NCBI GenBank assembly: GCA_030704615.1
Contig: CM060731.1
Span: forward strand, 26,226,001 to 26,290,000
Reading direction: 5' to 3'
Length of the DNA stretch: 64,000 nt
DNA from: Takakia lepidozioides
Lineage: Eukaryota > Plantae > Bryophyta
The notes beneath the pieces are model-generated. The model was not told where the DNA came from and did not search any database. It was given only the letters and a program-made list of their open reading frames with translations. The position numbers were made by a program, and so were the translations under genes. Position 1 is the stretch's first letter. The number at the start of each line of letters is the position of its first letter. Below are positions 22,301-41,154 of the stretch, in pieces.

Positions 22301-22936
22301 CATGAAACAAAGAACGGAAACACCAGCAAGACGAAGACGTAAGTCTATGGTAGGGTCATCAGTAACAGAACAGGATCAGGAAGGTGCTGGATCATCCTCA
22401 AAGAAGAGGAAACCAAAGAAATCCATTGATCAGCCCTTGCTCCCGAAGTAAAGATCACCAGCATTGGAGACAACATGTTCGTTTGGGTTGTCGTGCGCAT
22501 ACATATCGCTACACAATTACATCGCTGTCCAAACCACACCACACATATATGCACAATAAAATAGTCTGCCACAATAGATAAACAAAAGCTAAAAGGACAC
22601 ACATTCTCAACACAAGAAATATGAAATCCATCGCTATCACTCTTTAAAATAGAAGTCGAGCCAGGGGCACCCCAAGCTATGGGGACTCCACCCAACAACA
22701 ACCTACACTCCCATCATAAGCACACTCAGATCTAAACGCATGAAGGAGCTCGGTCGAGCAGGCTCAACTCGAGAGAGATGAGCTGCGCGACTGACACTCT
22801 CGTGAAGATAAGATAGTTCAGGTGTCAAGCTCAAACTTGACACCTGACTTAACACTTGAACTAAATCCAAGTGTTAAATACAAATAACTAGTTTTATTCT
22901 AGTTAGTTTCACACTGCGTTTATTTAACTTGACAGC

Positions 22937-23372
22937 TGTCCTCGCCTGAACTTGTGGTAATCGTCCATAGGCGGGCCTTCCAAATGCTGGAACAGTCCCT
23001 TCCACGCCATGAATGGGGTGAATAGCTGTGGATTGCGCATCTGCTGCAAATCACACCAGCTGTCGAACTCCTGGATAAAGTCATCCAACTCGATTGTGCC
23101 CACAACTCCTGAGTACCTACGAGGCCCCTTGGTAGCTCCATACATCTCCTCCATGTCGTCCCACAACAATGGCGAATGAAACTGCACACCTGTTGATGAA
23201 GCCTTCGAGTCTGTGTCTGACTTTGCACTAGTTGAGGGTGGAGGTGAAGGTGGTCTGAAACGAACACCTCGTCTGGTGAACCCACTCTCACTGCTACTGC
23301 CTGTAGCCGTACTCCCCTCAGAACCCCTGGGTAACTCCGTGATGACACTCACAATGTGCACCTCCCCCACGT
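22937..23372 (-). pseudogene. gag: 5' fragment of gag
   Basis: Near-identical to the N-terminus of ORF 35532-37370 (IELDDFIQEFDSWCDLQQMRNPQLF); truncated at the TGTC junction. Confidence 0.9.
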
Positions 23373-23919
23373 GACACTTTAAGGCTCTATTACTAATTCT
23401 AATAGTGACACGGGTAGGCACCTGTTGTAGTTTAAGGGTCATATCCCAGTGGCTCAGGGCACCTGCACCTGCATCCACCGCAAAAACTCCTTTGGTTGGC
23501 TGGTCATCAACCCAGTCTCACCATAGAAGAAACACTGGTGGTCTTGCTGGTCATCACTCACTCCAGCCTCACCACCGACAACATACTCTAGGATTGACCG
23601 CTGATCAAATCCGGCCTAATCCCTATGAAAGCAAGCGCCCACACAAACCAACATGGTGCACAGTCAAGCATGCAGGTGTTTGGGGGGATCCAAACACAAG
23701 AAATCAAAACATCAACACCCCCACACCAAAATCCATCTACAGTGCTGACCTGCAGAATATCCCAGCCCAAAACCCCGGACTGACTGGCCTCCACCAAGAG
23801 AGGCTTTGGCAACTACGAGTACAAGGTAATGAAAATAGTACAGAGATGGAGGGGAAGAATAGAAGCCCGACCAAGCAAGATCTAACCCTGATCTATGCTA
23901 TCAACTGCCAGACTTCTCT

Positions 23920-24642
23920 CTAAGTGCCTCGCTCTGCATGATGGTAAGGTGTAGGAGGTATATCTATGTCCAGAAACCTGCCACTAACCTTGTCCCAAGC
24001 TACAGTAGCTCGCTCTAACCAACCCTCCTCCTCTTTCTGCCAAGTAGAAACAAAGCAATACTCCCCTATCTCCCGCTCACTGAACACTAAAGAAAACAAA
24101 GGTAGGGTCTGATAGTCTCTCAACTCGAAAGCTTTGAGACGGTTGCGGGTGTCCTCATTGCGAATGACTGCATCTCCTTCAAACAGAACAAACTTGTCCT
24201 CGCTAATGAACCCCCGCTCGTGGTTGCCTTGTGCAGAGCGTGTTTGGCTGCAATGCTGTCTGATTGCACAAACTTGTGTAGCTCCTGCTCCTCTACTCCA
24301 ATACACCACGGCCTTGTGGCTGAACACCTTGGTCCCCGGGGCTGTCTTTGGCTGTGTTCCAAGCCTAGCTTTCACCCACTTTGGTATTCCACCTAAAGCT
24401 GCAGAACTGCTGGCTCCAACAGGGTCCTGACTGTCCAAAGCAATATTGAGGCCCTCAACGCCAACTACAGCAGTTTGTTGTCCACTGCTAATGCCTGACT
24501 CCCAGTATGCAATCAACTCGTCCAACTGTTTTCCATTCAAATCAGTCTGAGTTCCTTGGGAAACATAAATCTTGTCCCCTTGGGTGCACAGGCTAAGAGA
24601 AGAGACCTGCCCTTCAATTACGTCCTCATTTCCCCCAGCCAT
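23920..24642 (-). CDS. Element-encoded extra ORF (ORF0, 240 aa) upstream of gag, unknown function
   Basis: ATG-initiated open frame; homologous sequence at the same position in the second copy (~37915-38636). Confidence 0.65.
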   Translation of the reverse strand: MAGGNEDVIEGQVSSLSLCTQGDKIYVSQGTQTDLNGKQLDELIAYWESGISSGQQTAVVGVEGLNIALDSQDPVGASSSAALGGIPKWVKARLGTQPKTAPGTKVFSHKAVVYWSRGAGATQVCAIRQHCSQTRSAQGNHERGFISEDKFVLFEGDAVIRNEDTRNRLKAFELRDYQTLPLFSLVFSEREIGEYCFVSTWQKEEEGWLERATVAWDKVSGRFLDIDIPPTPYHHAERGT

Positions 24643-25032
24643 ACAAGGAGTACATCCCCAGATTTATCTCTCATGTAGACCAGAACAGGTTCTAGAAACA
24701 AGATTGTGGATCTTTCATGGCACACTCATACTCTAAAAATTCCATAGATTTTTAGCAGAGTCCCAAAAACAAAAACCAGGTCTAGATAGGTAGATTTCCC
24801 CTTTCTTTAGGTCCATGCGCAAGTTTTGGGTCCAACGGCCTTGGTAGGCCAAAGTTATGGCCAAACAGGCTCTATCTAATTTAAATTAGATCAAAGAACA
24901 ATTTTTTTTTAAAAAAAATACTTGTCTTGGTTCCTGTTCCCTGGTTAACTACGGGTTCCCGAGGCCGTTCCCCTTGCACTGTGGGCACACTACTGCCCCA
25001 TTTCCGAGCGCACTCCATAGCAGCAGTCTTCC

Positions 25033-26590: not shown

Positions 26591-29256
26591 GGACGAGAAT
26601 ATTGTTGGCTTTGAACTGCTGCAGCGACACTTCGAGTGGTTCCCGCCTTCCTGTTATGCTCCACTAGGCACACATAGCCAGTCTACCTGCAGGCTATCGT
26701 AACCAAGCTATATTATAATAGTGCTTAAAAACAGGAACGTCACATCTAGCTTAGCACTAGAAAACTAGATACAGTTCCATCTCTCTCGAGTGATAAACAA
26801 AAGCTAAAAGGACACACACTCTCAACACAAGAAATATGAAATCCATCGCTATCACTCTTTAAAATAGAAGTCGAGCCAGGGGCACCCCAAGCTATGGGGA
26901 CTCCACCCCACAACAACCTACACTCCTATCATAAGCACACTCAGATCTAAACGCATGAAGGAGCTCGATTGCGCAGGCTCAACTCGAGAGAGATGAGCTG
27001 CGCGACTGACGCTCTCGTGAAGATAAGATAGTTCAGGTGTCAAGCTCAAACTTGACACCTGACTTAACACTTGAACTAAATCCAAGTGTTAAATACAAAT
27101 AACTAGTTTTATTCTAGTTAGTTTCACACTGTGTTTATTTAACTTGACAGGGTTTCCACTTCCTTCACGTATGCGTACTTGAGTTCTGTAACATTGCTTC
27201 CCGTCTTGTACTGAAACCGGAGCTTGTGATCTGGAGGTTCCCCAACGACTTCAATGCCCCCATTCTTTTATACTGCTATTCAATTTGTATATAGCTACAT
27301 GCTCGGTCTTGTATCCCGGGGATCTGACAGGTAAGAAATCCCCACAAATGTCTGCAGACATTCCGGGTTGGCAATCTTCGGGGGCCTGAGAACTGCAAAA
27401 GCCAGATGTCCAATATTTGATCAGGAAAACACCTCGAGTCGACGTTAGAAAATGTTTATGACGTGACCATGATATTTAATCACACTATCTTTTCCACATA
27501 CAATGAAGGCCAAACCAAATCCCACAAGGTTTGTAAGCTCAAACACATTGAAAAATCTTTGTAAATATCCATCTTTTATTTATATCAGAGAGCAACTGAG
27601 ATTTACAACACATTCCTCAATAATGAGACAACATTACTCAAATGTCCAGAGACCAGTGTCTTCATCACAATAGATTCGGCCTAACCAAACAGGTTCCAAA
27701 AGAGGATCTTGACCTTGAGTTCCCGACAGCCCAAGAATCTCGGCACAGACATTGTCCATGGGTAGTTCATATTCTTCGGGGTATGACGTGCGTGGAACGT
27801 AAGTCTCTGGACTGTATGATTCTGGAACATAGGTAGAGTAGAATAACATGTATTCATATGGCCGTTGGCTATCTCGTTTAGAGGAACGAATGTACTGTGA
27901 TGAGGTTGGCATATATTCAGGGGAAGACGGACAATATCCAGGCGAGTCTGCTGCCTCTGAACCGGATGATGAGTAGACTATTTTAGTTGGTTCAATGAAG
28001 TCTGGAAGCTCGTATTTGGAGTTCCGGGAATTGGGTAGAAGCTCGATGAGTATTCGGTCGTTTCATCATTTCCACAGTAATCACTCCTACACAACCACCT
28101 ACGAACTGCCTCAGTTCACTCAAACACAAAATTAGTTTGGTCCTACCTCTCTAAAAAAATTGTTCCAAATTCTCAACGTCGACATGAATGTCGACGTCCC
28201 TTCGGAGGAGACTAAGGAGTACTATTTTTTGGAACATTTCTTCTACTACCTATGTCGAATTCAGTATGATCCTAAGTAAGGGACAGAAGATTTTACGTCA
28301 GGTCTAATGAACGTCGACGCAAATGTCGAGGTTCCAGATAAATATGTCAAGAAATAGTGGGACATTTCGCCACGAAGACGCTAATGTAAAAACCTCACCC
28401 AACCTAGCTTGCCACATCTTACCTCAGTACAAGAATCCAAATTGACCTAAGTGAAACTCAATCTCATGAAAACCGAACATAATCCAACCTCTTTGAACCG
28501 CATTTCCCAACCTAACCTGGCCTCATTAAACTCCACAACGTCGACACTCATGTCGATGTTCTTGGCATTAGCTTTTCATGATTACGTGAACCAGGAAGTT
28601 GCTATATTTCTAGATTTTTTAGACTTTCTAGACATTAATGTTGACGTTCTGACTCACTATCAATCGTGTACGCATATGGTCTTATGATTTGTTGTCTCAT
28701 ATTTGGGAATTTGGAATGGTTACAAGGAGTGTTTCCATGGTACAAGTAGTGTTCAATTCATTTCCTATGCATTGTTTATGCATGTGCAGTGCATTACATT
28801 AGCAATTGAAATTGCAGTAGAATTTGAAATACATTTGAAAGTTTGGGGCTCTTTGCATTTGGGTGTTACAGTTTTGGATCTATGGTTTGGAGCCAAGTTA
28901 AGACAAGATAAAACAATAGAAATCAAGGGAAACAAGACAACACAATGAATTAATAATTCTGCAATTTTACCTACTATTGGATGCCATGTCGAAGTGCTTC
29001 GGTGTGTCTTGGAGGCTTCCAAATAAATTCAAATGCCCTCTATCCACTGATTGACCCTTCCACAAATACATCTATTAGCTTGAAAGGTATAAAAAGAGAT
29101 CTAATAAGGACAATGGAAAACAAGGTAACCAATATGGTGGTAATGACAAGAACTTCTGGTTGGCCCTACTGTACCAAAGCCATTAGAATACCTGAAAATA
29201 ACTCGGGGCGGGAAGCCCGAACAACAAATAGAAGCTCACAGGGAAAAGAAGATTGC

Positions 29257-29343
29257 TGTCGTGCACATACATATCGCTACACAACTACATCGCTGTCCAA
29301 ACCACACCACACATATATGCACAATAAAGTAGTCTAGCACAAT
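29257..29343 (-). repeat. Repeat S (87 bp), terminal copy
   Basis: Direct repeat of 29701-29787 with one visible mismatch. Confidence 0.95.
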
Positions 29344-29698
29344 GATAATGAAGCTTGAAAGGACATACACTCCCAACACAAGAAATATAAAATCCATCGC
29401 TATCACTCATTGAAACTGAAGTCGAGCCAGGGGCACCCCAAGCTATGGGGACTCCACCCCACAACAACCTGTATCCCTACATAAGCACACTAAAACCTAA
29501 ACACATGCAGGAGCTCGGTCGCGCAGGCTCAACTCGAGAGAGATGAGCTGCGCGACTGCCGCTCTCGTGAAGATAAGACAGACCAGGTGTCAAACTAAAC
29601 TTGACACCTGATTTAACACTTGACCTAAATCCAAGTGTTAAATACAAATAACTAGTTTTATTCTAGCTGTTTTCACACTGTGCTTATTTAACTTGACA
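29344..29698 (-). repeat. Repeat L (355 bp), 3' copy
   Basis: Appears identical to 40800-41154. Confidence 0.97.
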
Positions 29699-29700
29699 GC

Positions 29701-29787
29701 TGTCGTGCGCATACATATCGCTACACAACTACATCGCTGTCCAAACCACACCACACATATATGCACAATAAAGTAGTCTAGCACAAT
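29701..29787 (-). repeat. Repeat S (87 bp), inner copy
   Basis: Follows the PPT on the sense strand; joined to L through GACA-GC-TGTC (29695-29704). Confidence 0.95.
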
Positions 29788-30045: not shown

Positions 30046-33000
30046 CTATCCAATGCATTGTGGACATAACCAATCCCCATCTGGAACCATCTCAAGAGGT
30101 GGAGTCAAGCACCCCATATGCCAACCTCTAGAGCATCGATCACACACCAGCATGGTGGCTGCCCCTTTAGCAGACCCACACAACATGCACCTCAAACCTG
30201 CAGATACCACTGCCAGGTTTGGGTCAATCCTGCCATCGACATTCGGAAGGTGACATGGCGCACAATTACGCACATGGTCCTTCCAAGTTATGCCATCCCG
30301 ACCCTCCAAGACCAAGACGCCTGAGGGCAAGACCTCTCGAACCCTCAAAATAACACGTCCTGCAGTCACATCCAGGGTCGTAGGAGCAGTCTGCTGCAGA
30401 TAGACATAGTCACCAGGGTTGAATCTCCGAACCCCAGGACGATAGCCCCCACCACGTATGGTAGCATACCTCAACGTATCACGGTGTTGTGCAATGGCAA
30501 GGTTCTCGAAAGCCATAGGCATGACTCTCTTGAACAACTCTGCACGCTGCTCACATGCACGTGCCCACACGTCCGGATCGTCAAGGTTAAGAACTGTAGC
30601 AGCTTCTCTGCGAATGGATGTAGGCAAATCCGGCTCTCGGCCAAAGAGAAGAAAGTATGGTGAGAAGGAGGCAAGTGATGCTTGCTTGCTGAACCTGTAG
30701 CCCATGGCTAACCAGGGTAACTGAAGGTCCCAATCTCCTAGGTGTCCCTTCTGCAAGCCATACTTGCGCAAACCCCTCTTTACTGTCTGAACAACTCTCT
30801 CTGCCAAGCCATCGGCTTCAGGATGATCCCGAGAAGTGGTGCGGTGGTCTATCAAGGCCTTGTCACACAAAGCCTGAAACTCCCCCAAGAACTCTCTCCC
30901 TTGGTCCGTGAGTACCTCAGCTGGAGCACCGAATCGGCTAAGCACACAATCCAGGAATGCATACGCAGCTCCCTCACTAGCCTTATCAGGCAATGGAACC
31001 AATTCAATCCACTTGGAGAAGTGCTCCACCATCACCAACACGTACTTGTTGTGGCGCATGGTCAGTGGCAACGGCCCTGCGAAGTCAAGACTCCACCTGT
31101 AGCCCAATCCCATGATCGGAAGAGGGTGCAATTGTGGAGTAGGGGCGTTGAATGAAGCACGCACCCTGTCACACACCATGCACCTAGCCACAAATTGTTG
31201 CACCTCTGTGTGCATACCACGCCACCAATACTGCCCCTGCAGTAGACTATGAGTGCGTCGCACCCCAAAATGCCCCAACTCGCGCACTAACCGTGCCCGC
31301 TGTGTTGGGTGAGGCACAATCCTCACTCGACCATCCTCCCACACTCGGAGCAGGTGTGTCCCCTCCCACTTGAACCTCTTGGCTCGTTGTAGGATCCGAT
31401 CCCTCTCCTTGGCAGTCATAGTGGCTGCCGTGTCTCCACTGCGGAGGTAGTCCAACACAACTGAATCCTCATGTATATCTTTGGCGCCACCCTGCTCATT
31501 GCTGGCCTCAGGGTCCTCAGACACTTGATCTACAGTCATCCCTGTTGTAGGTCCAACCTGGCCTTCCGCTGCCAAGATACACAGAAATGCAGATGCATGC
31601 CATCCGGGCACCATCTCCTCGTCCGTCTCACCATGCCACCGAGCTCCAGTGTCATCCTGCTGGCTCGTGCATGGATTGCGACTCAACCCATCTGCATTTC
31701 GATTGACCAAACCCGGTCGATGCACCACCTGAAAGTCATACTCTTGAAGGATGAGTGCCCACCGTGCAAGCTTCCCCGTAAGCTTGTCTGACTCCATCAA
31801 CCACTTGAGTGGTTGGTGATCCGTGACAAGGGTGAAGAGATTGCCGTATAGATAGCACCTGAAGTGTGCCACGGCCCACACTGCAGCTAAGCATTCTCCC
31901 TCATATGAGCTATACTTAGACTCTGCAGCATTGTTCGAGCGGCTAGCATAAGCCACTACGAACTCTCTTCCCTCATCATCCACCTGTGTGAGCACCGCTC
32001 CAAGCCCCAGCATGCTCCAATCTGTATGCAGCTGAAAAGGACGCCCCCTGATAGGTCGTCTCAAGATGGGCGCCGAGGTCAACCTCGCCTTGAGCTCTTG
32101 AAAAGCTTGTTCTTGCTCATCTTCCCACTGCCACTCCTGGTCCACCTTGGTCAGCTTGGTTAGAGCCTTTGCAATGGCACTAAATCCCTTAACAAACCGT
32201 CTGTAATAGTTTGCTAACCCCATGAAAGCTCGAACTCGGCTCACATCCGTGGGGCGTGGAACCTGTGCAATGGACTCTACCTTAGTCTGCTGTACCCCCA
32301 ATCCTCCAGGATATATCATGTGACCCAGATACTCAATCTGGTTGTGGAAAAACTTGCACTTGCCCGGATGTAACTTCAATCCGTGCGTCCTCAAGCGCTC
32401 AAATACCCCCTGAAGGTGTCTCTCATGCTCCTCCACCGTAGCACTAAAGATGATGATGTCATCTATGTAGCACCGAGCAAACTCCACCCCTGCTAGAATC
32501 CTGTCCATGACTCTTTGAAACTCAGCGGGAGCGTTTTTAAGCCCAAATGGTAAGAACCGCCACTGGTATAGGCAATCCTTCCCGTGCTCATTGATCCCCC
32601 AGAATGCCGTCTTTTGCTTATCCGCCTCCTTGATCGGCAACTGGTGATATCCGGATCGTAAATCCAACGTGCTAAAGACCTTGGAATGCCCAATGGCATC
32701 AAAGATCTCCTCTGGTGTTGGCATGGCATACCTATCGGACTTGGTCTGACGATTTACAGGCCGGTAATCACCGCACATACGTCTCTCCGTCCAATTGCCA
32801 TAGACATCCTTCTTAGCTGGCATCACTGTGGCTGAAGCATACTCTCCACCAGAGAGCTCCACCAAACCTGCCTCCCAGAGATCTTGAGTCCTCATCTGAA
32901 TCAAAGACCTCTCCATGTCACTGTATCTATAGGGTCTCCGAAAGATTGGCGTGTCAGTGGCCAACTCAATACGGATCTCTTGACCCTTCAGTGCTCCCAA

Positions 33001-33168
33001 GTCCTTCAAACTGAAGGCAAAGCAATTCCTGTAAGCCCTCAGGAACCGCCGTATACGTCGTCTCTCTCCTCCGGTGACAATGGGTCCAATGTCAGGCTCC
33101 CAATTGTCCTCCGTAACTGCAACCTTAAGTCCAGTGGGCTTAGAGGTAGAGGACGCGTCCCGTGGTTG
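30046..33168 (-). CDS. pol: RT-RNase H-integrase-PHD polyprotein
   Basis: RT STLDLRSGYHQ, PFGLKNAP, CYIDD; RH LHTDWS...YEGECLA...TDHQPL; IN WSLDFAGP, LTDQGREF, GLAERVVQ; C-terminal PHD CMLC...CDRCSRGWHMGCLTPPL...GDWLCPQC. The frame is open right up to the UAG at 33169-33171. Confidence 0.96.
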   Translation of the reverse strand, partial: QPRDASSTSKPTGLKVAVTEDNWEPDIGPIVTGGERRRIRRFLRAYRNCFAFSLKDLGALKGQEIRIELATDTPIFRRPYRYSDMERSLIQMRTQDLWEAGLVELSGGEYASATVMPAKKDVYGNWTERRMCGDYRPVNRQTKSDRYAMPTPEEIFDAIGHSKVFSTLDLRSGYHQLPIKEADKQKTAFWGINEHGKDCLYQWRFLPFGLKNAPAEFQRVMDRILAGVEFARCYIDDIIIFSATVEEHERHLQGVFERLRTHGLKLHPGKCKFFHNQIEYLGHMIYPGGLGVQQTKVESIAQVPRPTDVSRVRAFMGLANYYRRFVKGFSAIAKALTKLTKVDQEWQWEDEQEQAFQELKARLTSAPILRRPIRGRPFQLHTDWSMLGLGAVLTQVDDEGREFVVAYASRSNNAAESKYSSYEGECLAAVWAVAHFRCYLYGNLFTLVTDHQPLKWLMESDKLTGKLARWALILQEYDFQVVHRPGLVNRNADGLSRNPCTSQQDDTGARWHGETDEEMVPGWHASAFLCILAAEGQVGPTTGMTVDQVSEDPEASNEQGGAKDIHEDSVVLDYLRSGDTAATMTAKERDRILQRAKRFKWEGTHLLRVWEDGRVRIVPHPTQRARLVRELGHFGVRRTHSLLQGQYWWRGMHTEVQQFVARCMVCDRVRASFNAPTPQLHPLPIMGLGYRWSLDFAGPLPLTMRHNKYVLVMVEHFSKWIELVPLPDKASEGAAYAFLDCVLSRFGAPAEVLTDQGREFLGEFQALCDKALIDHRTTSRDHPEADGLAERVVQTVKRGLRKYGLQKGHLGDWDLQLPWLAMGYRFSKQASLASFSPYFLLFGREPDLPTSIRREAATVLNLDDPDVWARACEQRAELFKRVMPMAFENLAIAQHRDTLRYATIRGGGYRPGVRRFNPGDYVYLQQTAPTTLDVTAGRVILRVREVLPSGVLVLEGRDGITWKDHVRNCAPCHLPNVDGRIDPNLAVVSAGLRCMLCGSAKGAATMLVCDRCSRGWHMGCLTPPLEMVPDGDWLCPQCIG

Positions 33169-35565
33169 CTATGCTGCAACCTCTTGAGCAGTACCCCCTT
33201 CCTGCTCAGTCAATGACAAGGCCTCATCCTGCCCCATCATCTCATCATTGAGAACCTCCTCATCCCGAGAAGAATCCCCAACCTCATCCATCACAGCTGC
33301 CTTCGCTGCCAACTCCCTCTGAACCTCGAGCACCTCCCACGTGTGCCATGGATGTCTACACCTCGTGGTCCTCACCGGCTCGCCCCCACTCGCTGCCTGT
33401 ACCGTCTCGGTAGGCAGAGAGACCGTCAAGGGAAGTGCACTCCGCACTCTACGTTGCTCAGCCATAGCCAAGCTGACAATCCAGGTCAAGCAATTGAGAT
33501 CCATTGCTTGCCCCAACACCTGACGACGTGATGCCTCAGAAAGAGAAGGCACCGCCGTGGTCCCAGTGGAAAACCCCATAGCCCGCTCTCGCTCGTCGGC
33601 ATTAGGCTCCACTAACTGCTGCAACTGAGCATCCCACAAGAGGCCAGGTCCACCATCCCGAAAAGCATGGGATCCTGGGAAGCTGAGCAGTGTAGGTAAT
33701 GCTGCTCGTGGTTGACCCACCCTGTTGACCACTGCCAAAGGCGAACGGTCATCGTGTCTCACACGTTGAGACTGCCTTCCTGTGTCCAAAATGCCATCCA
33801 CGGTGAGGTGTGCTGGCCGCTGCACCCCATCAAATGCACGCTTGAGCAGTGCGGGTGGCATCAAGTTAGTCCACCATAGTCGTGGACGATGAGCCCGTGA
33901 CCCCACTGCAGCTGCATCCAGCAATACTGCTGACCCAAGCCACGACCGGACTTGATGCACACTGGCCATCACCCTGGCCCGAGAATCACCCATCAGTGGT
34001 ACATTCTCCAAGATGTATGCTGGAGATACAGCTTGATGAAGCTGCAAGCAGCGCAAAATCCGCACCATCTCCCAAAACAGACCCGTCCTCGAGTCTCGCA
34101 ATCCATTGCCATGCCCGGCTGATGAATGCCCTTGGCAGGGCCAACCTGCCACTATCAGATCAATGGAGCCAACCTGCTCCAAATCTTGCGCCCCCAACAA
34201 GGAAATGTCTGCTGGCAAGGCTTGTTGGTATCCACGAACTGCAGACACAGGCAACAAGTCAGGGTACTGCTGTACCAACTGAGCCACATGGCGCAGTGAG
34301 ACGCGTCGTGCAGTCTCATCCCTCTCCACATACAGGTAACGCCTTACCCGCACACCTGCCTGTAGCACAGCAGCCAATCCGGTGCTGATCCCGCCAAACA
34401 AGTCCAGAAGGCAAATGCCTTCATCCGGCCGCTGCCACACAAGAGGTGTGGTGTCCAATGGCGACAACTGAGGTGGCCCTGGTGCAATCACCGCACTCTC
34501 CTCCTCTCCTGACGGTACAAAAGCTTCTACCCAAGCTTGTTGCACCCGTCCATCAGCAGCTTGCTGCAAATCCTTGCTCGTACCCCACAACGGAGTGTGA
34601 GCAACCATGGCAGGCAACTCCGCCGTACCATGCATGTCATCCTGCTCTGCTGGAGGTGGCACATCCTCTGCATGGGCATTGCCTTCCAGCAACTCTCCAG
34701 GCCAACTAACTGCAGCTGTGAAGGCGGCTAGTGTTGGCATCTTGCCCCGCTGGGCAGCTGCAATACCCCCAATGAATGTCACAGGGAGCTGTGCACGGCG
34801 ACCATCCCCTGACTGCCATCCAGGCCTGTAGGATGCTGACTCCTCCCAGAAATCCAGGGTGAAGCCCATGGGGTATAACACTGCCCCACCAACGAGGACA
34901 TCGTAAGAGACCGCGTCTGTCACAATGGCCTTGGCTCGCATCACTGAGCCATCTACAGGATGATCCGGCTGCAGTCTAATAGCCAACTGATGCCGTGTCA
35001 TGCCGCGAGCCTGCTCTGATCCTCCCAGAGATGTCTGTATCTGGAAAGGACAAGGCTCCATATCCGCCTCCATGAGGCCCAAACCTGCAATAGCAGCTCT
35101 GCCCAACATCAGTGGCTGAGCTCCTGAGTCCAACAAGACCCGCAGTGGCCGGTACTTCTTGCCTGCCGGTCCACTCAAAGTGAAAATGCCTCCCTGGTTG
35201 TCTAACAAGACAACTCCAGGTGTCACCATGGCGCGCTCAATGGCTGGCCTAGCTGGCAGCTCCGTCAACCTGGCAGCTGCAACTTGCCATGGCGCAGCCG
35301 TGGCAGTCTTGACCCTCAAATCCGAGGATCCCTCTGCCACTACACCTTCCACTAACTCCGCAGAAGATGAAGTGACCTCCCCACTCTCACAGAGTGTTGC
35401 TGCTAGTCTGAACACTGCAGCTGGTCTCACCCCCGGCGTCGCAATCATGGTTGCCGAGAACAGTGGGGCTTGACACACAGAGGTGGCTGCCCCCAATAAC
35501 ACACCGGTTGCACTAGCCTTGGTAGCAGGTGTCAGTGCTGCACGTGTAGCTCTCCCCAATGGCAT
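33169..35565 (-). CDS. Aspartic protease plus C5-cytosine DNA methyltransferase (DNMT3-like; domain ~33450-34425)
   Basis: PR VLLDSGAQ; MTase motifs I LDLFGGISTG, II YVERDE, IV VAGWPCQGHS, VI YILENV, VIII AHRPRLWWTN, IX ERERAMGF, X RRQVLGQAM, in canonical order. Confidence 0.93.
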   Translation of the reverse strand: MPLGRATRAALTPATKASATGVLLGAATSVCQAPLFSATMIATPGVRPAAVFRLAATLCESGEVTSSSAELVEGVVAEGSSDLRVKTATAAPWQVAAARLTELPARPAIERAMVTPGVVLLDNQGGIFTLSGPAGKKYRPLRVLLDSGAQPLMLGRAAIAGLGLMEADMEPCPFQIQTSLGGSEQARGMTRHQLAIRLQPDHPVDGSVMRAKAIVTDAVSYDVLVGGAVLYPMGFTLDFWEESASYRPGWQSGDGRRAQLPVTFIGGIAAAQRGKMPTLAAFTAAVSWPGELLEGNAHAEDVPPPAEQDDMHGTAELPAMVAHTPLWGTSKDLQQAADGRVQQAWVEAFVPSGEEESAVIAPGPPQLSPLDTTPLVWQRPDEGICLLDLFGGISTGLAAVLQAGVRVRRYLYVERDETARRVSLRHVAQLVQQYPDLLPVSAVRGYQQALPADISLLGAQDLEQVGSIDLIVAGWPCQGHSSAGHGNGLRDSRTGLFWEMVRILRCLQLHQAVSPAYILENVPLMGDSRARVMASVHQVRSWLGSAVLLDAAAVGSRAHRPRLWWTNLMPPALLKRAFDGVQRPAHLTVDGILDTGRQSQRVRHDDRSPLAVVNRVGQPRAALPTLLSFPGSHAFRDGGPGLLWDAQLQQLVEPNADERERAMGFSTGTTAVPSLSEASRRQVLGQAMDLNCLTWIVSLAMAEQRRVRSALPLTVSLPTETVQAASGGEPVRTTRCRHPWHTWEVLEVQRELAAKAAVMDEVGDSSRDEEVLNDEMMGQDEALSLTEQEGGTAQEVAA

Positions 35566-37370
35566 AGTAACCTCCGCCTCGGTAACGTCGGGCGAGAACT
35601 AGGTGCCATGGATGGCGTTGACACTGTCTCCGCCAAGGTGAATGACTGAGGCAGCCTCGCCTGACGGCTTGCCTCCCCACGTTGTGGATCCAACTCCACC
35701 TCTGCACCTCGTGGCTCAGGAACTCGTGCTGCTCCTCGAGTCACGGCTGCAGCAGACTCCACCTGCTCTAGTGGTAGTGCTGCTCCGCACATGAATCCCA
35801 TGCCTCCCATATCTCCTCCATCAGGAGCAGGAGGTGGACCATCCCGCCTGGGAGCCGGTACCGCCTGAGCTATAGCCATGGCAGCGAGCCTCTGCTCTAG
35901 CTGCTGAAGCCGATTGGCCATGCCTTGGTCAACACCTTGACCTCCGCGTCCTTGGCCATGTGGAGCTTGCCCTTGGCCTGCACCTCGTGCCCGACCACCT
36001 CGTCCTCTTTGGGCTGGTCCACCTCGCCCCCGGCCACCATTGTTCCCTTGGAACTGGCCTGGGCGCAACTCAGGATGCAAGTCATAACACTGGGCATCTA
36101 CATGCCCATACTTGCCACAATGCCCACACTGCAACTGTGCAGGCTGTGCTTGTGCCGGCCTTCTGCCATTCTCTGGGCAATCTCTTTTGACATGGGGTCC
36201 TCCACATGTCCAACATATCACCCCTGGTTGCTGTTGGCCTGCAAAAGATGCCACGGGCCTCTGCACCTGAGGTCCCCTGTGTGCTCCATGGAACTTGGGC
36301 TGGGCAACCTTGCCCCCCTGACCACGCTGTTGGGCAGTCCCTTGTGCCTGTGGGCTGACAGCTGTGCCCCGTACAGGCATGTCCTTGCCAAATCCAATTG
36401 TAACAACTCGCTCCTCCACCATGTTGAGCTCAATCCGCTCAGCCAGCAGAAACACATCTGCTAATGTGGGTTGGGCTGCTTGTAACAAGGTTGCATCTCG
36501 CACCCTTCTCTTGAGCTCCTTGTCCAGAATTCCATACCAAAACTGGATTGCCTGAGCTTCAGTAACCCCTTGGGTCACACTTATCAAGCGCCTCATACGA
36601 GTGTACGCCTCTCGCAGGCTCTCACTGGGTTTGCGCTGGAAGTCTTGCAAACTTCGCAGCTTCTTTGTCCGTACACCTTGGTAGTTCCTCCGCAACTCCT
36701 GGAAGAACTCCACCACCGGGTTGAATCTAGGCACATGTGTTGTAGTCGTGGCAGGAGGAGTAGTAGCACCTTTTGAACTGGTACCACCTACAGAAGTACC
36801 AGCACTACTTGCTCCACTACTAGTGCTGGCAGTGGGAGCTATTGGTACTGATGCAGCTACTGGTCGCGTCGTGCCTCGAGTAATGGAGACGTAGTCAGGT
36901 GACCAATACATCCTCCACTCCTCAATCTCTGCTTCATGTCCTCGCCTGAACTCGTGGTAATCGTCCATAGGCGGGCCTTCCAAATGCTGGAACAGTCCCT
37001 TCCACGCCATGAATGGGGTGAATAGCTGTGGATTGCGCATCTGCTGCAAATCACACCAGCTGTCGAACTCCTGAATAAAGTCATCCAACTCGATTGTGCC
37101 CACAGCTCCAGAGTACCTACGAGGCCCCTTGGTAGCTCCATACATCTCCTCCATGTCGTCCCACAACAATGGCGGATGAAAGTGCACACCTGTTGATGAA
37201 GCCTCCGAGTCTGTGTCTGACTCTATAGTAGTTGAGGGTGGCGGTGAAGGTGGTCTGAACCGAATACCTCGTCTTGTGAACCCACTCTCACTGTTACTGC
37301 TTGTAGCCGTACTTCCCTCAAAACCCTTGGGTAACTCCGTAATGACACTCACAATGTGCACCTCCTCCAC
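35532..37370 (-). CDS. gag: Gag
   Basis: LQDFQRKPSESLREAYTRM...FWYGIL; zinc knuckles CWTCGGPHVKRDC and CGHCGKYGHVDAQC; RGG-rich region. Confidence 0.92.
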   Translation of the reverse strand: MEEVHIVSVITELPKGFEGSTATSSNSESGFTRRGIRFRPPSPPPSTTIESDTDSEASSTGVHFHPPLLWDDMEEMYGATKGPRRYSGAVGTIELDDFIQEFDSWCDLQQMRNPQLFTPFMAWKGLFQHLEGPPMDDYHEFRRGHEAEIEEWRMYWSPDYVSITRGTTRPVAASVPIAPTASTSSGASSAGTSVGGTSSKGATTPPATTTTHVPRFNPVVEFFQELRRNYQGVRTKKLRSLQDFQRKPSESLREAYTRMRRLISVTQGVTEAQAIQFWYGILDKELKRRVRDATLLQAAQPTLADVFLLAERIELNMVEERVVTIGFGKDMPVRGTAVSPQAQGTAQQRGQGGKVAQPKFHGAHRGPQVQRPVASFAGQQQPGVICWTCGGPHVKRDCPENGRRPAQAQPAQLQCGHCGKYGHVDAQCYDLHPELRPGQFQGNNGGRGRGGPAQRGRGGRARGAGQGQAPHGQGRGGQGVDQGMANRLQQLEQRLAAMAIAQAVPAPRRDGPPPAPDGGDMGGMGFMCGAALPLEQVESAAAVTRGAARVPEPRGAEVELDPQRGEASRQARLPQSFTLAETVSTPSMAPSSRPTLPRRRLLCHWGELHVQH

Positions 37371-37914
37371 GTGACACTATAAGGCTCTAGTACTAATCTA
37401 ATAGTGACACGGGTGGGCACCTGTTGCAGTCTAAGGGTCATATCCCAATGGCTCAGGGCACCTGCACCTGCATCCACCGCAAGAACTCCTATGGTTGGCT
37501 GGTCATCAACCCAGCCTCACCATAGAAGAAACACTAGTGGTCTTGCTGGTCATCACTCCAGCCTCACCACCGACAGCATACTCTAGGATTGACCGGTGAT
37601 CAAATCCGGCCTAATCCCTATGAAAGCAAGCGCCCACACAAAACCAACATGGCGCACAGTCAAGCATGCAGGTGTTGGGGGGGATCCAAACACAAGAAAT
37701 CAAAGCATCAACACCCCCACACCAAATCCAGCAGCAACGCTGATCCTGCAGAATATCCCAGCCCAAAACCCCGGACTGACTGGCCTCCACCAAGAGAGGC
37801 TTTGGCAACTACAAGTACAAGGTAATGAAAATAGTACAGAGATGGAGGGGAAGAATAGAAGCCCGCCCAAGCAAGATCTAATCCTGATCTATGCTATCAA
37901 CTTCCAGACTTCTC

Positions 37915-38636
37915 TCAAAGTGCCTTGCTCTGCTTGATGGTAAGGTGTAGGAGGTATATCTATGTCCAAAACCTGCCACTAACCTTGTCCCAAGCTACAG
38001 TAGCTCGCTCTAACCAACCCTCCTCCTCTTTCTGCCAGGTAGAGACAAAGCAATACTCCCCTATCTCCCGCTCACTGAACACTAAAGAAAACAAAGGTAG
38101 GGTCTGATAGTCTCTCAACTCGAAAGCTTTGAGACGGTTGCGGGTGTCCTCATTGCGAATGACTGCATCTCCTTCACGCACAACAAACATGTCATTGCTG
38201 ATGAACGCCCGCTCGTGGTTGCCCTGTGCAGAGCGTATCCGGCTGCAACCATGTCTGATTGCACAAACTTGTGTAGCTCCTGCTCCTCTGCTCCAGTACA
38301 CCACGGCCTTGTGACTGAACACCTTGGTCCCCGGGGCTGTCTTTGGCTGTGTTCCAAGCCTAGCTTTCACCCACTTTGGTATTTCACCTACAGCTGCAGA
38401 ACTGCTGGCTCCAACAGAGTTCTGACTGTCCAAGGCGATATTGAGGCCTCAATGCCAACTACAGCAGTCTGTTGTCTACTGCTAATGCCTGACTCCCAGT
38501 ATGCAATCAACTCGTCCAACTGTTCTCCACTCAAATCAGTCTGAGTTCCTTGGGAAACATAAATCCTGTCCCCTTGTGTGCACAGACTAAGAGAAGAGAC
38601 CTGCCCTTCAATTACGTCCTCATTTCCCCCAGCCAT
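37915..38636 (-). pseudogene. ORF0 (frameshifted copy)
   Basis: Homologous to 23920-24642 but split into ORFs 38388-38636 and 37960-38433. Confidence 0.65.
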
Positions 38637-39234
38637 GCAAGGAGTACATCCACCAATTTGTCTCTCATATAGACCAGCACAGGTTCTAGAGACAGGATTG
38701 TGGATCTTTCATGGCACACTCACACTCTAAAAATTCCATAGATTTTTAGCAGAGTCCCCAAAACAGAAACCAGGTTTAGATAGGTAGATTTCCCCTTTCT
38801 GCAGCTATCCCCCCAAAAACTGGGTCAAACGGAGCTCATTTGACAAAGATATGACCAACCAGGCTCTTTAAACATTTAAATTAGATCAAAAAGGTTTTTT
38901 TTTTTTTTTTTTAACACCAAAACGCTTTTGCCATTACAACCTGTTCCCAGGTTATCTACGAGTTCCCGAGGTCGTTCATGTAGTTCTCACAGGTTCCCTT
39001 ACCAATGTCCACAGAGCTTGAGCTGCGAAAACAAAACGGGATCTTTGCACCACGGCCAAGGAAGGGGCCGCAGCAAGCCGCGTGCATGCCATTGCTGTCG
39101 CCATCTCTTTCCCGCTTCCTCACCTAGCCCAAGCTTGCAAACTCTGAGTGGGCTCTATTGCGAGTTTCTCCTCGCCGAGCAGATGCCAGCACAACGACGA
39201 CAGATCGAACGGACGACCAATCTTCGAACCTAAA

Positions 39235-40786: not shown

Positions 40787-40799
40787 ATCTCTCTCGAGT
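40787..40799 (-). promoter_or_regulatory. Self-priming-type PBS
   Basis: Sense ACTCGAGAGAGAT abuts the 5' L repeat and is the perfect complement of 40988-41000 within it; no TGG-starting tRNA PBS is present. Confidence 0.75.
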
Positions 40800-41154
40800 G
40801 ATAATGAAGCTTGAAAGGACATACACTCCCAACACAAGAAATATAAAATCCATCGCTATCACTCATTGAAACTGAAGTCGAGCCAGGGGCACCCCAAGCT
40901 ATGGGGACTCCACCCCACAACAACCTGTATCCCTACATAAGCACACTAAAACCTAAACACATGCAGGAGCTCGGTCGCGCAGGCTCAACTCGAGAGAGAT
41001 GAGCTGCGCGACTGCCGCTCTCGTGAAGATAAGACAGACCAGGTGTCAAACTAAACTTGACACCTGATTTAACACTTGACCTAAATCCAAGTGTTAAATA
41101 CAAATAACTAGTTTTATTCTAGCTGTTTTCACACTGTGCTTATTTAACTTGACA
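40800..41154 (-). repeat. Repeat L (355 bp), 5' copy
   Basis: Appears identical to 29344-29698; not accompanied by S. Confidence 0.97.

Follow-up and report, generated by a model that had tools for sequence, protein, structure and literature searches.

A conserved, putatively leaky UAG codon behind the methyltransferase of a Ty3/gypsy-type, DNMT3-carrying retrotransposon in Takakia lepidozioides

Readthrough of stop codons is already well known in retroelements, as at the gag-pol junction of murine leukemia virus (MuLV) and the pol/env-like junction of SIRE1. In MuLV, the balance between structural and enzymatic proteins depends on an in-frame UAG between gag and pol (PMC2194720, PMC4178896), and readthrough at this codon is reported as 5% (PMC2194720). 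In SIRE1, a Ty1/copia element of soybean belonging to the Sireviruses, the pol and env-like frames are divided by a stop codon that is suppressed (PMC2829016, PMC2194720). In tobamoviruses and other plant viruses, efficient readthrough is described as following the consensus UAG-CAR-YYA, which also works with UAA and UGA (PMC3542737). A different solution is found in Tca2, where an in-frame gag stop is bypassed mainly through expression of pol that is independent of gag translation (PMC2194720). Retrotransposons carrying a DNA methyltransferase (DNMT) have been described from streptophytes, including the Gypsy-DNMT3 element of Klebsormidium nitens (KnitGypsy-Dnmt3; de Mendoza et al. 2018, PMC5890265), in which the DNMT lies in the Pol open reading frame (ORF) and the repeats have a DIRS-like layout, and a 2026 preprint (10.64898/2026.05.21.726589) names "streptophytes (Gypsy-DNMT3)". 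Here we describe an element in a 64,000-nucleotide stretch of Takakia lepidozioides (assembly GCA_030704615.1, contig CM060731.1, positions 26,226,001 to 26,290,000), hereafter the window. The element is a minus-strand, Ty3/gypsy-type, DNMT3-carrying retrotransposon about 11.9 kb long, and it encloses a TAG codon at 33171..33169 which is the inherited end of the protease-methyltransferase (PR-DNMT) frame and which, judging from sequence context and conservation, is probably a leaky stop programmed in the manner of tobamoviruses (UAG-CAR-YYA).

The candidate readthrough signal, TAG-CAA-CCA, was identified by direct reading of the minus strand at 33163..33171, with GCA preceding the stop (33174..33172); the plus strand at 33163-33171 reads TGGTTGCTA. 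Translation of 35565..30046 gave 1840 positions with only one internal stop, at position 799, and the reverse transcriptase (RT), RNase H, integrase and PHD regions were all in frame behind it. This is exactly what the first-pass annotation had read, namely a PR-DNMT ORF ending in GCA-TAG-CAA-CCA whose frame stays open through RT, RNase H, integrase and PHD, and its distance of 53 codons from the stop to the start of the downstream ORF at 33009 agrees as well, this start being the first one taken by the ORF finder (TTG). The first methionine behind the stop is about 85 codons in, past conserved N-terminal RT sequence. The downstream ORF therefore has what is expected of a readthrough site, in that it is in the same frame, encodes needed products and is without a conserved start of its own. 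The sequence in the window is an exact fit to UAG-CAR-YYA. TAGCARYYA was observed once in the 64-kb window compared to 3.96 times in shuffles, so the nonamer alone is unremarkable. What goes beyond chance is the placement of the nonamer at the sole in-frame stop, together with its conservation in relatives.

Conservation was assessed in homologous junctions. Scanning of metagenome contigs with a DNMT alignment identified 80 loci, and scanning of genome contigs identified one relevant locus (L081). The junction could be tallied in 56 sequences, consisting of the window, 54 of the 80 metagenome loci and L081. The other 26 metagenome loci were left untallied for one of three reasons: the contig stops before the junction or the DNMT is truncated or partial (e.g. 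L007, L011, L024, L030, L034, L044, L046, L065, L074 and L075), there is an internal deletion (L009), or the locus has an RT-RNase H-DNMT-integrase architecture or a distant methyltransferase (L051-53, L056, L058-60, L063-64, L071 and L077-80). Junctions in L023, L069 and L070 were set by hand at the first of two adjacent stops, and three-frame translations were inspected by eye to locate those in L028, L038, L066-68 and L076. The metagenome relatives are mostly drawn from a small number of related sample series. The L081 contig is in a bin labelled Synechococcales and P0027 is labelled Obscuribacterales; these complete or partial family copies in bacterial bins are most simply explained as mis-binned plant DNA.

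The junction codon was TAG in 44 of the 56 sequences, TAA in 11 and TAC in one, giving a stop in 55. It was followed by CAA or CAG in 49 sequences and by TAA or TAG in the other seven, each of which is one C>T change from CAR and belongs to an otherwise damaged copy. The third codon was YYN in all 56 (CCA, CCC, CCT, CTC, TCC, TCA or TTA). Clustering of the junction sequences at no less than 85% nucleotide identity over at least 250 nt yielded 10 clusters, in every one of which TAG is kept with CAR-YY, or what C>T decay has made of it, directly behind; YYA is present in nine. The residue encoded by the third codon varies between clusters, being Pro (CCA/CCC), Leu (TTA) or Ser (TCA), and the codons on either side of the block vary too, both before the stop (GCA, GCG, GAT, GAC, AAG and others) and at the fourth codon after it (CGG, GTG, ATG, CAG, GAG and CCG). 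Because the residue and the flanking codons vary while the stop and the next bases are kept, conservation is at the nucleotide level, and the conserved block consists of the stop plus five to six nucleotides. The first-pass annotation had proposed an alignment of relatives for the stop and CARYYA, and had held that a sense codon in other copies would make the stop a private nonsense mutation. With a stop in 55 junctions, TAG in all 10 clusters and YYA in nine, the idea of a private mutation does not hold, and the aligned sequences indicate that the stop is inherited and conserved.

Three relatives have both sides of the single stop intact. The upstream and downstream ORFs are 1369 and 1047 aa in L033 (TAG-CAG-TTA), at least 1162 and 1047 aa in L081 (TAG-CAA-TCA), and 728 and 1047 aa in L037 (TAG-CAA-TCA). 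In decayed copies (L023, L066-L070 and L076), TAG-CAA was found changed to TAG-TAA or TAG-TAG, and a nearby CAG to TAG. Such C>T changes are what one would expect if methylated cytosines had been deaminated in copies under silencing.

When the DNMT half of the element was searched against proteins, relatives were identified in the liverworts Calypogeia and Marchantia, in Sphagnum mosses and in Closterium, as well as many metagenome ORFs. Many of the latter are located on 8-9 kb contigs, are about 1330 aa long and contain gag, PR and DNMT in a single frame; they stop a few dozen residues past the DNMT domain, with tails that are conserved to the last residue. Independent gene calls on other assemblies also end at the same junction (for example P0021-23, P0031-33, P0036 and P0037). 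The eukaryotic gene models P0011, P0012 and P0042 omit the stretch that holds the stop, which is the usual response of gene predictors to an in-frame stop. Matches to viral contigs were limited to distant phage-type methyltransferases with 24-50% identity over short segments, and these were not used.

In a maximum-likelihood tree of 48 DNMT-domain rows, all rows with a DNA-verified stop and all rows whose ORF ends in the linker fall into one clade of 28 rows (support 100/98), and no stop-less row is found inside it. The clade is diverged, with long tree paths and DNMT identity to the window going down to about 44-50%. From this tree the stop looks like a single gain, or like the state left by one old loss outside the clade, and it would have been kept since. 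Further out in the tree is a second architecture, RT-RNase H-DNMT-integrase-PHD, in a single uninterrupted frame, represented by L051, L053, L056, L059, L063 and L064 and by the proteins P0049, P0053 and P0070-P0100. Compared to the PR-DNMT-RT order, this places the same DNMT module at two positions in related Gypsy-type elements.

Other sequencing runs were compared across the junction. Run X5 provided one contig of 2173 nt over 32600-33543 with three differences listed, none of them in the nine bases, and the contig is unspliced across the junction, its status as RNA being only a guess. Runs X9 and X13, which carry other organism labels, provided one contig each, and among the differences listed none was at 33163-33171; for X13 only 7 of 17 counted differences are listed, so an unlisted site proves nothing there. 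In run X2, which is labelled as the organism of the window, the family is very abundant, with 14336 contigs on 1.2 kb (window 32600-33800) and many variants.

We also looked for other signals that could act at the junction. No conserved structure was found 3' of the stop by RNAalifold with eight representatives (-3.51 kcal/mol), a model that does not cover pseudoknots, and the only helix near the stop was a 4-bp stem embracing it. The single-sequence fold of the window had a z of -1.77. There was no Rfam match at the junction at E values up to 1, and no AUG behind the stop was conserved across clusters among the 56 junctions. The exact match to UAG-CAR-YYA, together with the lack of a conserved 3' structure and of a conserved AUG, favors readthrough driven by the hexanucleotide.

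In the mechanism that we propose, most ribosomes would terminate at the TAG and yield a protease-methyltransferase product, which in relatives with gag in frame, such as L033, would be a Gag-PR-DNMT polyprotein. In a small fraction of cases, an amino acid would be inserted at the UAG and translation would proceed through RT, RNase H, integrase and PHD. The usual device of retroelements, in which little polymerase is made with much structural protein, would thereby be shifted downstream, placing protease and DNMT on the abundant side. Readthrough in tobacco mosaic virus (TMV) and in SIRE1 amounts to a few percent. If readthrough is as inefficient here as in the known cases, PR-DNMT would be much more abundant than RT and integrase. 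The first-pass annotation had likewise proposed programmed readthrough after the DNMT, with the DNMT as a regulated and possibly particle-packaged component. The comparison of relatives, with a stop in 55 of 56 junctions and TAG in 10 of 10 clusters, lends good support to readthrough; an excess of DNMT would follow from it, and this excess may be functional, for example through packaging with Gag. More tentatively, and with the odds against it, it is possible that throughout a bryophyte Gypsy-DNMT3 clade the switch that sets the gag/pol ratio has moved behind protease and DNMT, with DNMT made at Gag stoichiometry, assembled into particles and methylating the element's own new cDNA, and with UAG-CAR-YYA setting the dose of RT and integrase.

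Several observations weigh against programmed readthrough. The junction of L028 (at 5254) has the only sense codon among the 56, TAC (Tyr), although this copy is decayed and has its DNMT and RT in different frames. The largest cluster (40 loci) mostly reads TAR-CAA-CCC-ATG and lacks the final A of the consensus; its third codon is CCC, or else CCT, CTC or TCC, and most of its members are decayed and contain further stops. As many of the junctions belong to near-duplicate dead copies that share the stop by descent, the independent witnesses are closer in number to the 10 clusters than to 56. In X2, which may be the window's own sample, none of the variants that reach 1% of depth in a 121-base stretch covered by 1066 contigs fell in the nine bases, with 33161, 33162, 33174 and 33175 polymorphic beside the signal, but 13 of the 121 positions vary and nine clean positions would occur by chance about 1 in 3 times, so this invariance is weak alone. 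The window copy may also be defective upstream. Its PR-DNMT is in the -1 frame relative to gag, with a 34-nt ORF overlap (region 35487-35601, minus strand) in which no canonical or near-canonical X XXY YYZ slippery heptamer was found, and in the relatives P0006 and L033 a single frame covers gag, PR and DNMT. The frame change in the window copy may be a private indel or an unrecognised shift. Finally, P0068, P0069, P0072, P0074 and P0045 have the PR-DNMT-RT order in a continuous ORF with no stop, which means that the stop is not required for the architecture. These stop-less forms fall outside the stop-bearing clade, are more distant and come from other samples. In P0045 a Tyr aligned to the stop is followed by Gln-Leu, in a linker where the alignment is loose.

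The main rival to readthrough is separate expression of RT and integrase, in which the stop would be a conserved genuine terminator of (Gag-)PR-DNMT, and RT-RNase H-integrase-PHD would be made by internal or non-AUG initiation, by termination and reinitiation, or from a subgenomic or spliced RNA. Tca2 is a precedent for this, since its pol is expressed largely independently of gag translation behind an in-frame gag stop (PMC2194720), and it makes clear that an in-frame stop alone is no proof of readthrough. Reinitiation would also be suited by the ATG two codons past the stop in the 40-member moss-like cluster (CAA-CCC-ATG, i.e. at +3 codons), but neither the window nor any of the other nine clusters has this ATG. 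In addition, CAR-YY is kept at the nucleotide level despite the change in amino acid, which is predicted by readthrough and not by separate expression, and the X5 contig that crosses the junction unspliced, if it is RNA, speaks against the route through splicing. We therefore regard separate expression as unlikely, while giving it more weight than either of the explanations that follow.

Two further explanations would make the stop a defect. A nonsense mutation that is private to a decaying copy or arose in it recently, with the match to CAR-YYA being coincidental, would be compatible with a nonamer that is not rare here (one found, 3.96 expected in shuffles) and with a window copy that has a gag/PR frame change and no slippery site. 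This can hardly be reconciled with a stop at the same codon in 55 of 56 junctions and 10 of 10 clusters, with the long intact ORFs on both sides in L033, L081 and L037, or with a supported clade formed by the stop rows, and we give it almost no credence. Alternatively, an unused stop could have been handed down by a defective master element whose copying relied on stop-less helpers acting in trans, as might be suggested by the dead state of most copies in the moss cluster and by the existence of stop-less relatives with the same domain order. However, the stop clade is deeply diverged, the flanking ORFs are intact in L033, L081, L037 and the window, and in a defective lineage the 1040-1047 codons that follow an unused stop would not have stayed open. 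The stop-less forms known to us are, moreover, outside the clade and from other samples. A defective master is thus a poor explanation as well, if slightly less so than a private mutation.

The remaining anatomy agrees with a Gypsy-type element of unusual layout. A 5' terminal repeat of 356 bp with TG...CA ends (40799..41154, minus strand) is 100% identical to 29343-29698, which marks the insertion as young. The 3' terminal repeat block (29255..29787, minus strand) consists of 89-bp, 356-bp and 89-bp repeats in a split-direct-repeat layout, and the two 89-bp copies (29699-29787 and 29255-29343), which flank the 3' 356-bp copy, are 98.9% identical. With the 356-bp repeat as A and the 89-bp repeat as B, the order is A1 ... 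B1-A2-B2 instead of two plain long terminal repeats (LTRs). Such a layout is typical of DIRS/PAT-like elements, yet this element encodes a DDE integrase. No target-site duplication was evident at its outer ends. Upstream in the window, a second, partial copy of the family (22489-24910) is 93% identical to 36937-38904 and comes with 89-bp and 356-bp repeats of its own; another repeat fragment, a solo one, is found at 26702-27150.

All coding regions are on the minus strand. The gag-like ORF (35532..37370) encodes 612 aa, ends in TGA, has weak Pfam matches (Retrotrans_gag, E 0.0019; zf-CCHC, E 0.24) and aligns with the N-terminal halves of P0002, P0005 and P0006. The PR-DNMT ORF (33172..35565 excluding the stop, 33169..35565 including it) encodes 798 aa from its ATG, or 809 aa counted from stop to stop, and matches PF00145 (E 6.8e-13). 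Its protease region (about 34930-35151) has a visible DSG motif and weak Pfam matches to aspartyl proteases (E 0.013-0.02, under the cut-off); relatives carry PF13650. The DNMT3-like domain (about 33286-34473; PF00145), a C5 cytosine methyltransferase, has DNMT3A and DNMT3B as its top matches among solved structures, from E 2.7e-10 (DNMT3A) to weaker values. The motifs FGG, PCQ and ENV are visible in its translation, and relatives show AGWPCQ as one of their best-conserved stretches. The in-frame continuation behind the stop (30046..33168), as defined by Pfam and translation, has 1040 codons and ends in a final TAG at 30048..30046. It contains a linker followed by RT (about 32314-32784; RVT_1), RNase H (about 31738-32127; RT_RNaseH), the integrase zinc and core domains (about 30820-31278; Integrase_H2C2 and rve) and a PHD finger (about 30055-30189; PHD).

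What is new here relative to earlier retroelement readthrough is the position of the switch, after protease and methyltransferase, and the occurrence of a virus-type signal, conserved across a clade, in a Ty3/gypsy lineage whose hosts are bryophyte-like. DNMT-carrying retrotransposons are known, and the stop would bear on how their DNMT is dosed relative to the replication enzymes. No report of a readthrough site behind a retrotransposon DNMT was found in the literature, including PMC5890265, 10.1101/363937 and 10.64898/2026.05.21.726589, in a search that did not extend to subscription papers or supplements. In the main text of PMC5890265, whose figures and supplements lay outside the search, the term "readthrough" is not used and "stop codon" is found a single time, in the legend of a Symbiodinium figure. 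If our proposal is correct, the methyltransferase is made in the same excess as capsid protein, and a conserved leaky stop directly behind it would argue that the DNMT is abundant and has work to do in the life cycle, instead of riding along inside Pol as a passenger. The range of the type I motif of plant viruses would also widen to include a chromosomal Ty3/gypsy lineage of early-diverging land plants. An experimental handle would be provided by changing the stop to a sense codon or by breaking the hexanucleotide, with transposition and methylation as readouts. Caution is advised in annotation, as liverwort and moss gene models splice around the stop.

Among the known systems, the junction resembles the tobamovirus type I signal, found in the TMV replicase as well as in benyviruses and pomoviruses, in its fit to CAR-YYA, in the location of the polymerase in the in-frame extension and in its plant-like host. 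The first-pass annotation had called UAG-CAR-YYA the leaky-stop signal of tobamoviruses, which agrees with the consensus given in PMC3542737, and the UAA found in some relatives of the element is tolerated by the type I motif too (PMC3542737). Unlike the tobamovirus case, the signal belongs to a chromosomal LTR-type retrotransposon and not to an RNA virus, and the largest cluster of relatives is without the final A. SIRE1 is similar in being a plant retroelement with two frames split by one stop, but it belongs to the copia superfamily and its stop is at the pol/env-like junction. The same annotation had placed the signal at this Sirevirus junction as well; what is confirmed for SIRE1 is the suppression of its stop (PMC2829016). 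The element shares with streptophyte Gypsy-DNMT3 the Gypsy-type RT, RNase H and integrase, a DNMT3-like, non-rearranged methyltransferase and split direct repeats; the likeness to KnitGypsy-Dnmt3 is one of description and domains, and the nearest named relatives are liverwort, moss and Closterium proteins. Like the gammaretrovirus MuLV, it has an in-frame UAG ahead of the polymerase. MuLV requires a spacer and pseudoknot, whereas no conserved 3' structure was found here, and in MuLV it is gag and protease that the stop separates, while in the Takakia element both protease and DNMT are upstream of the stop.

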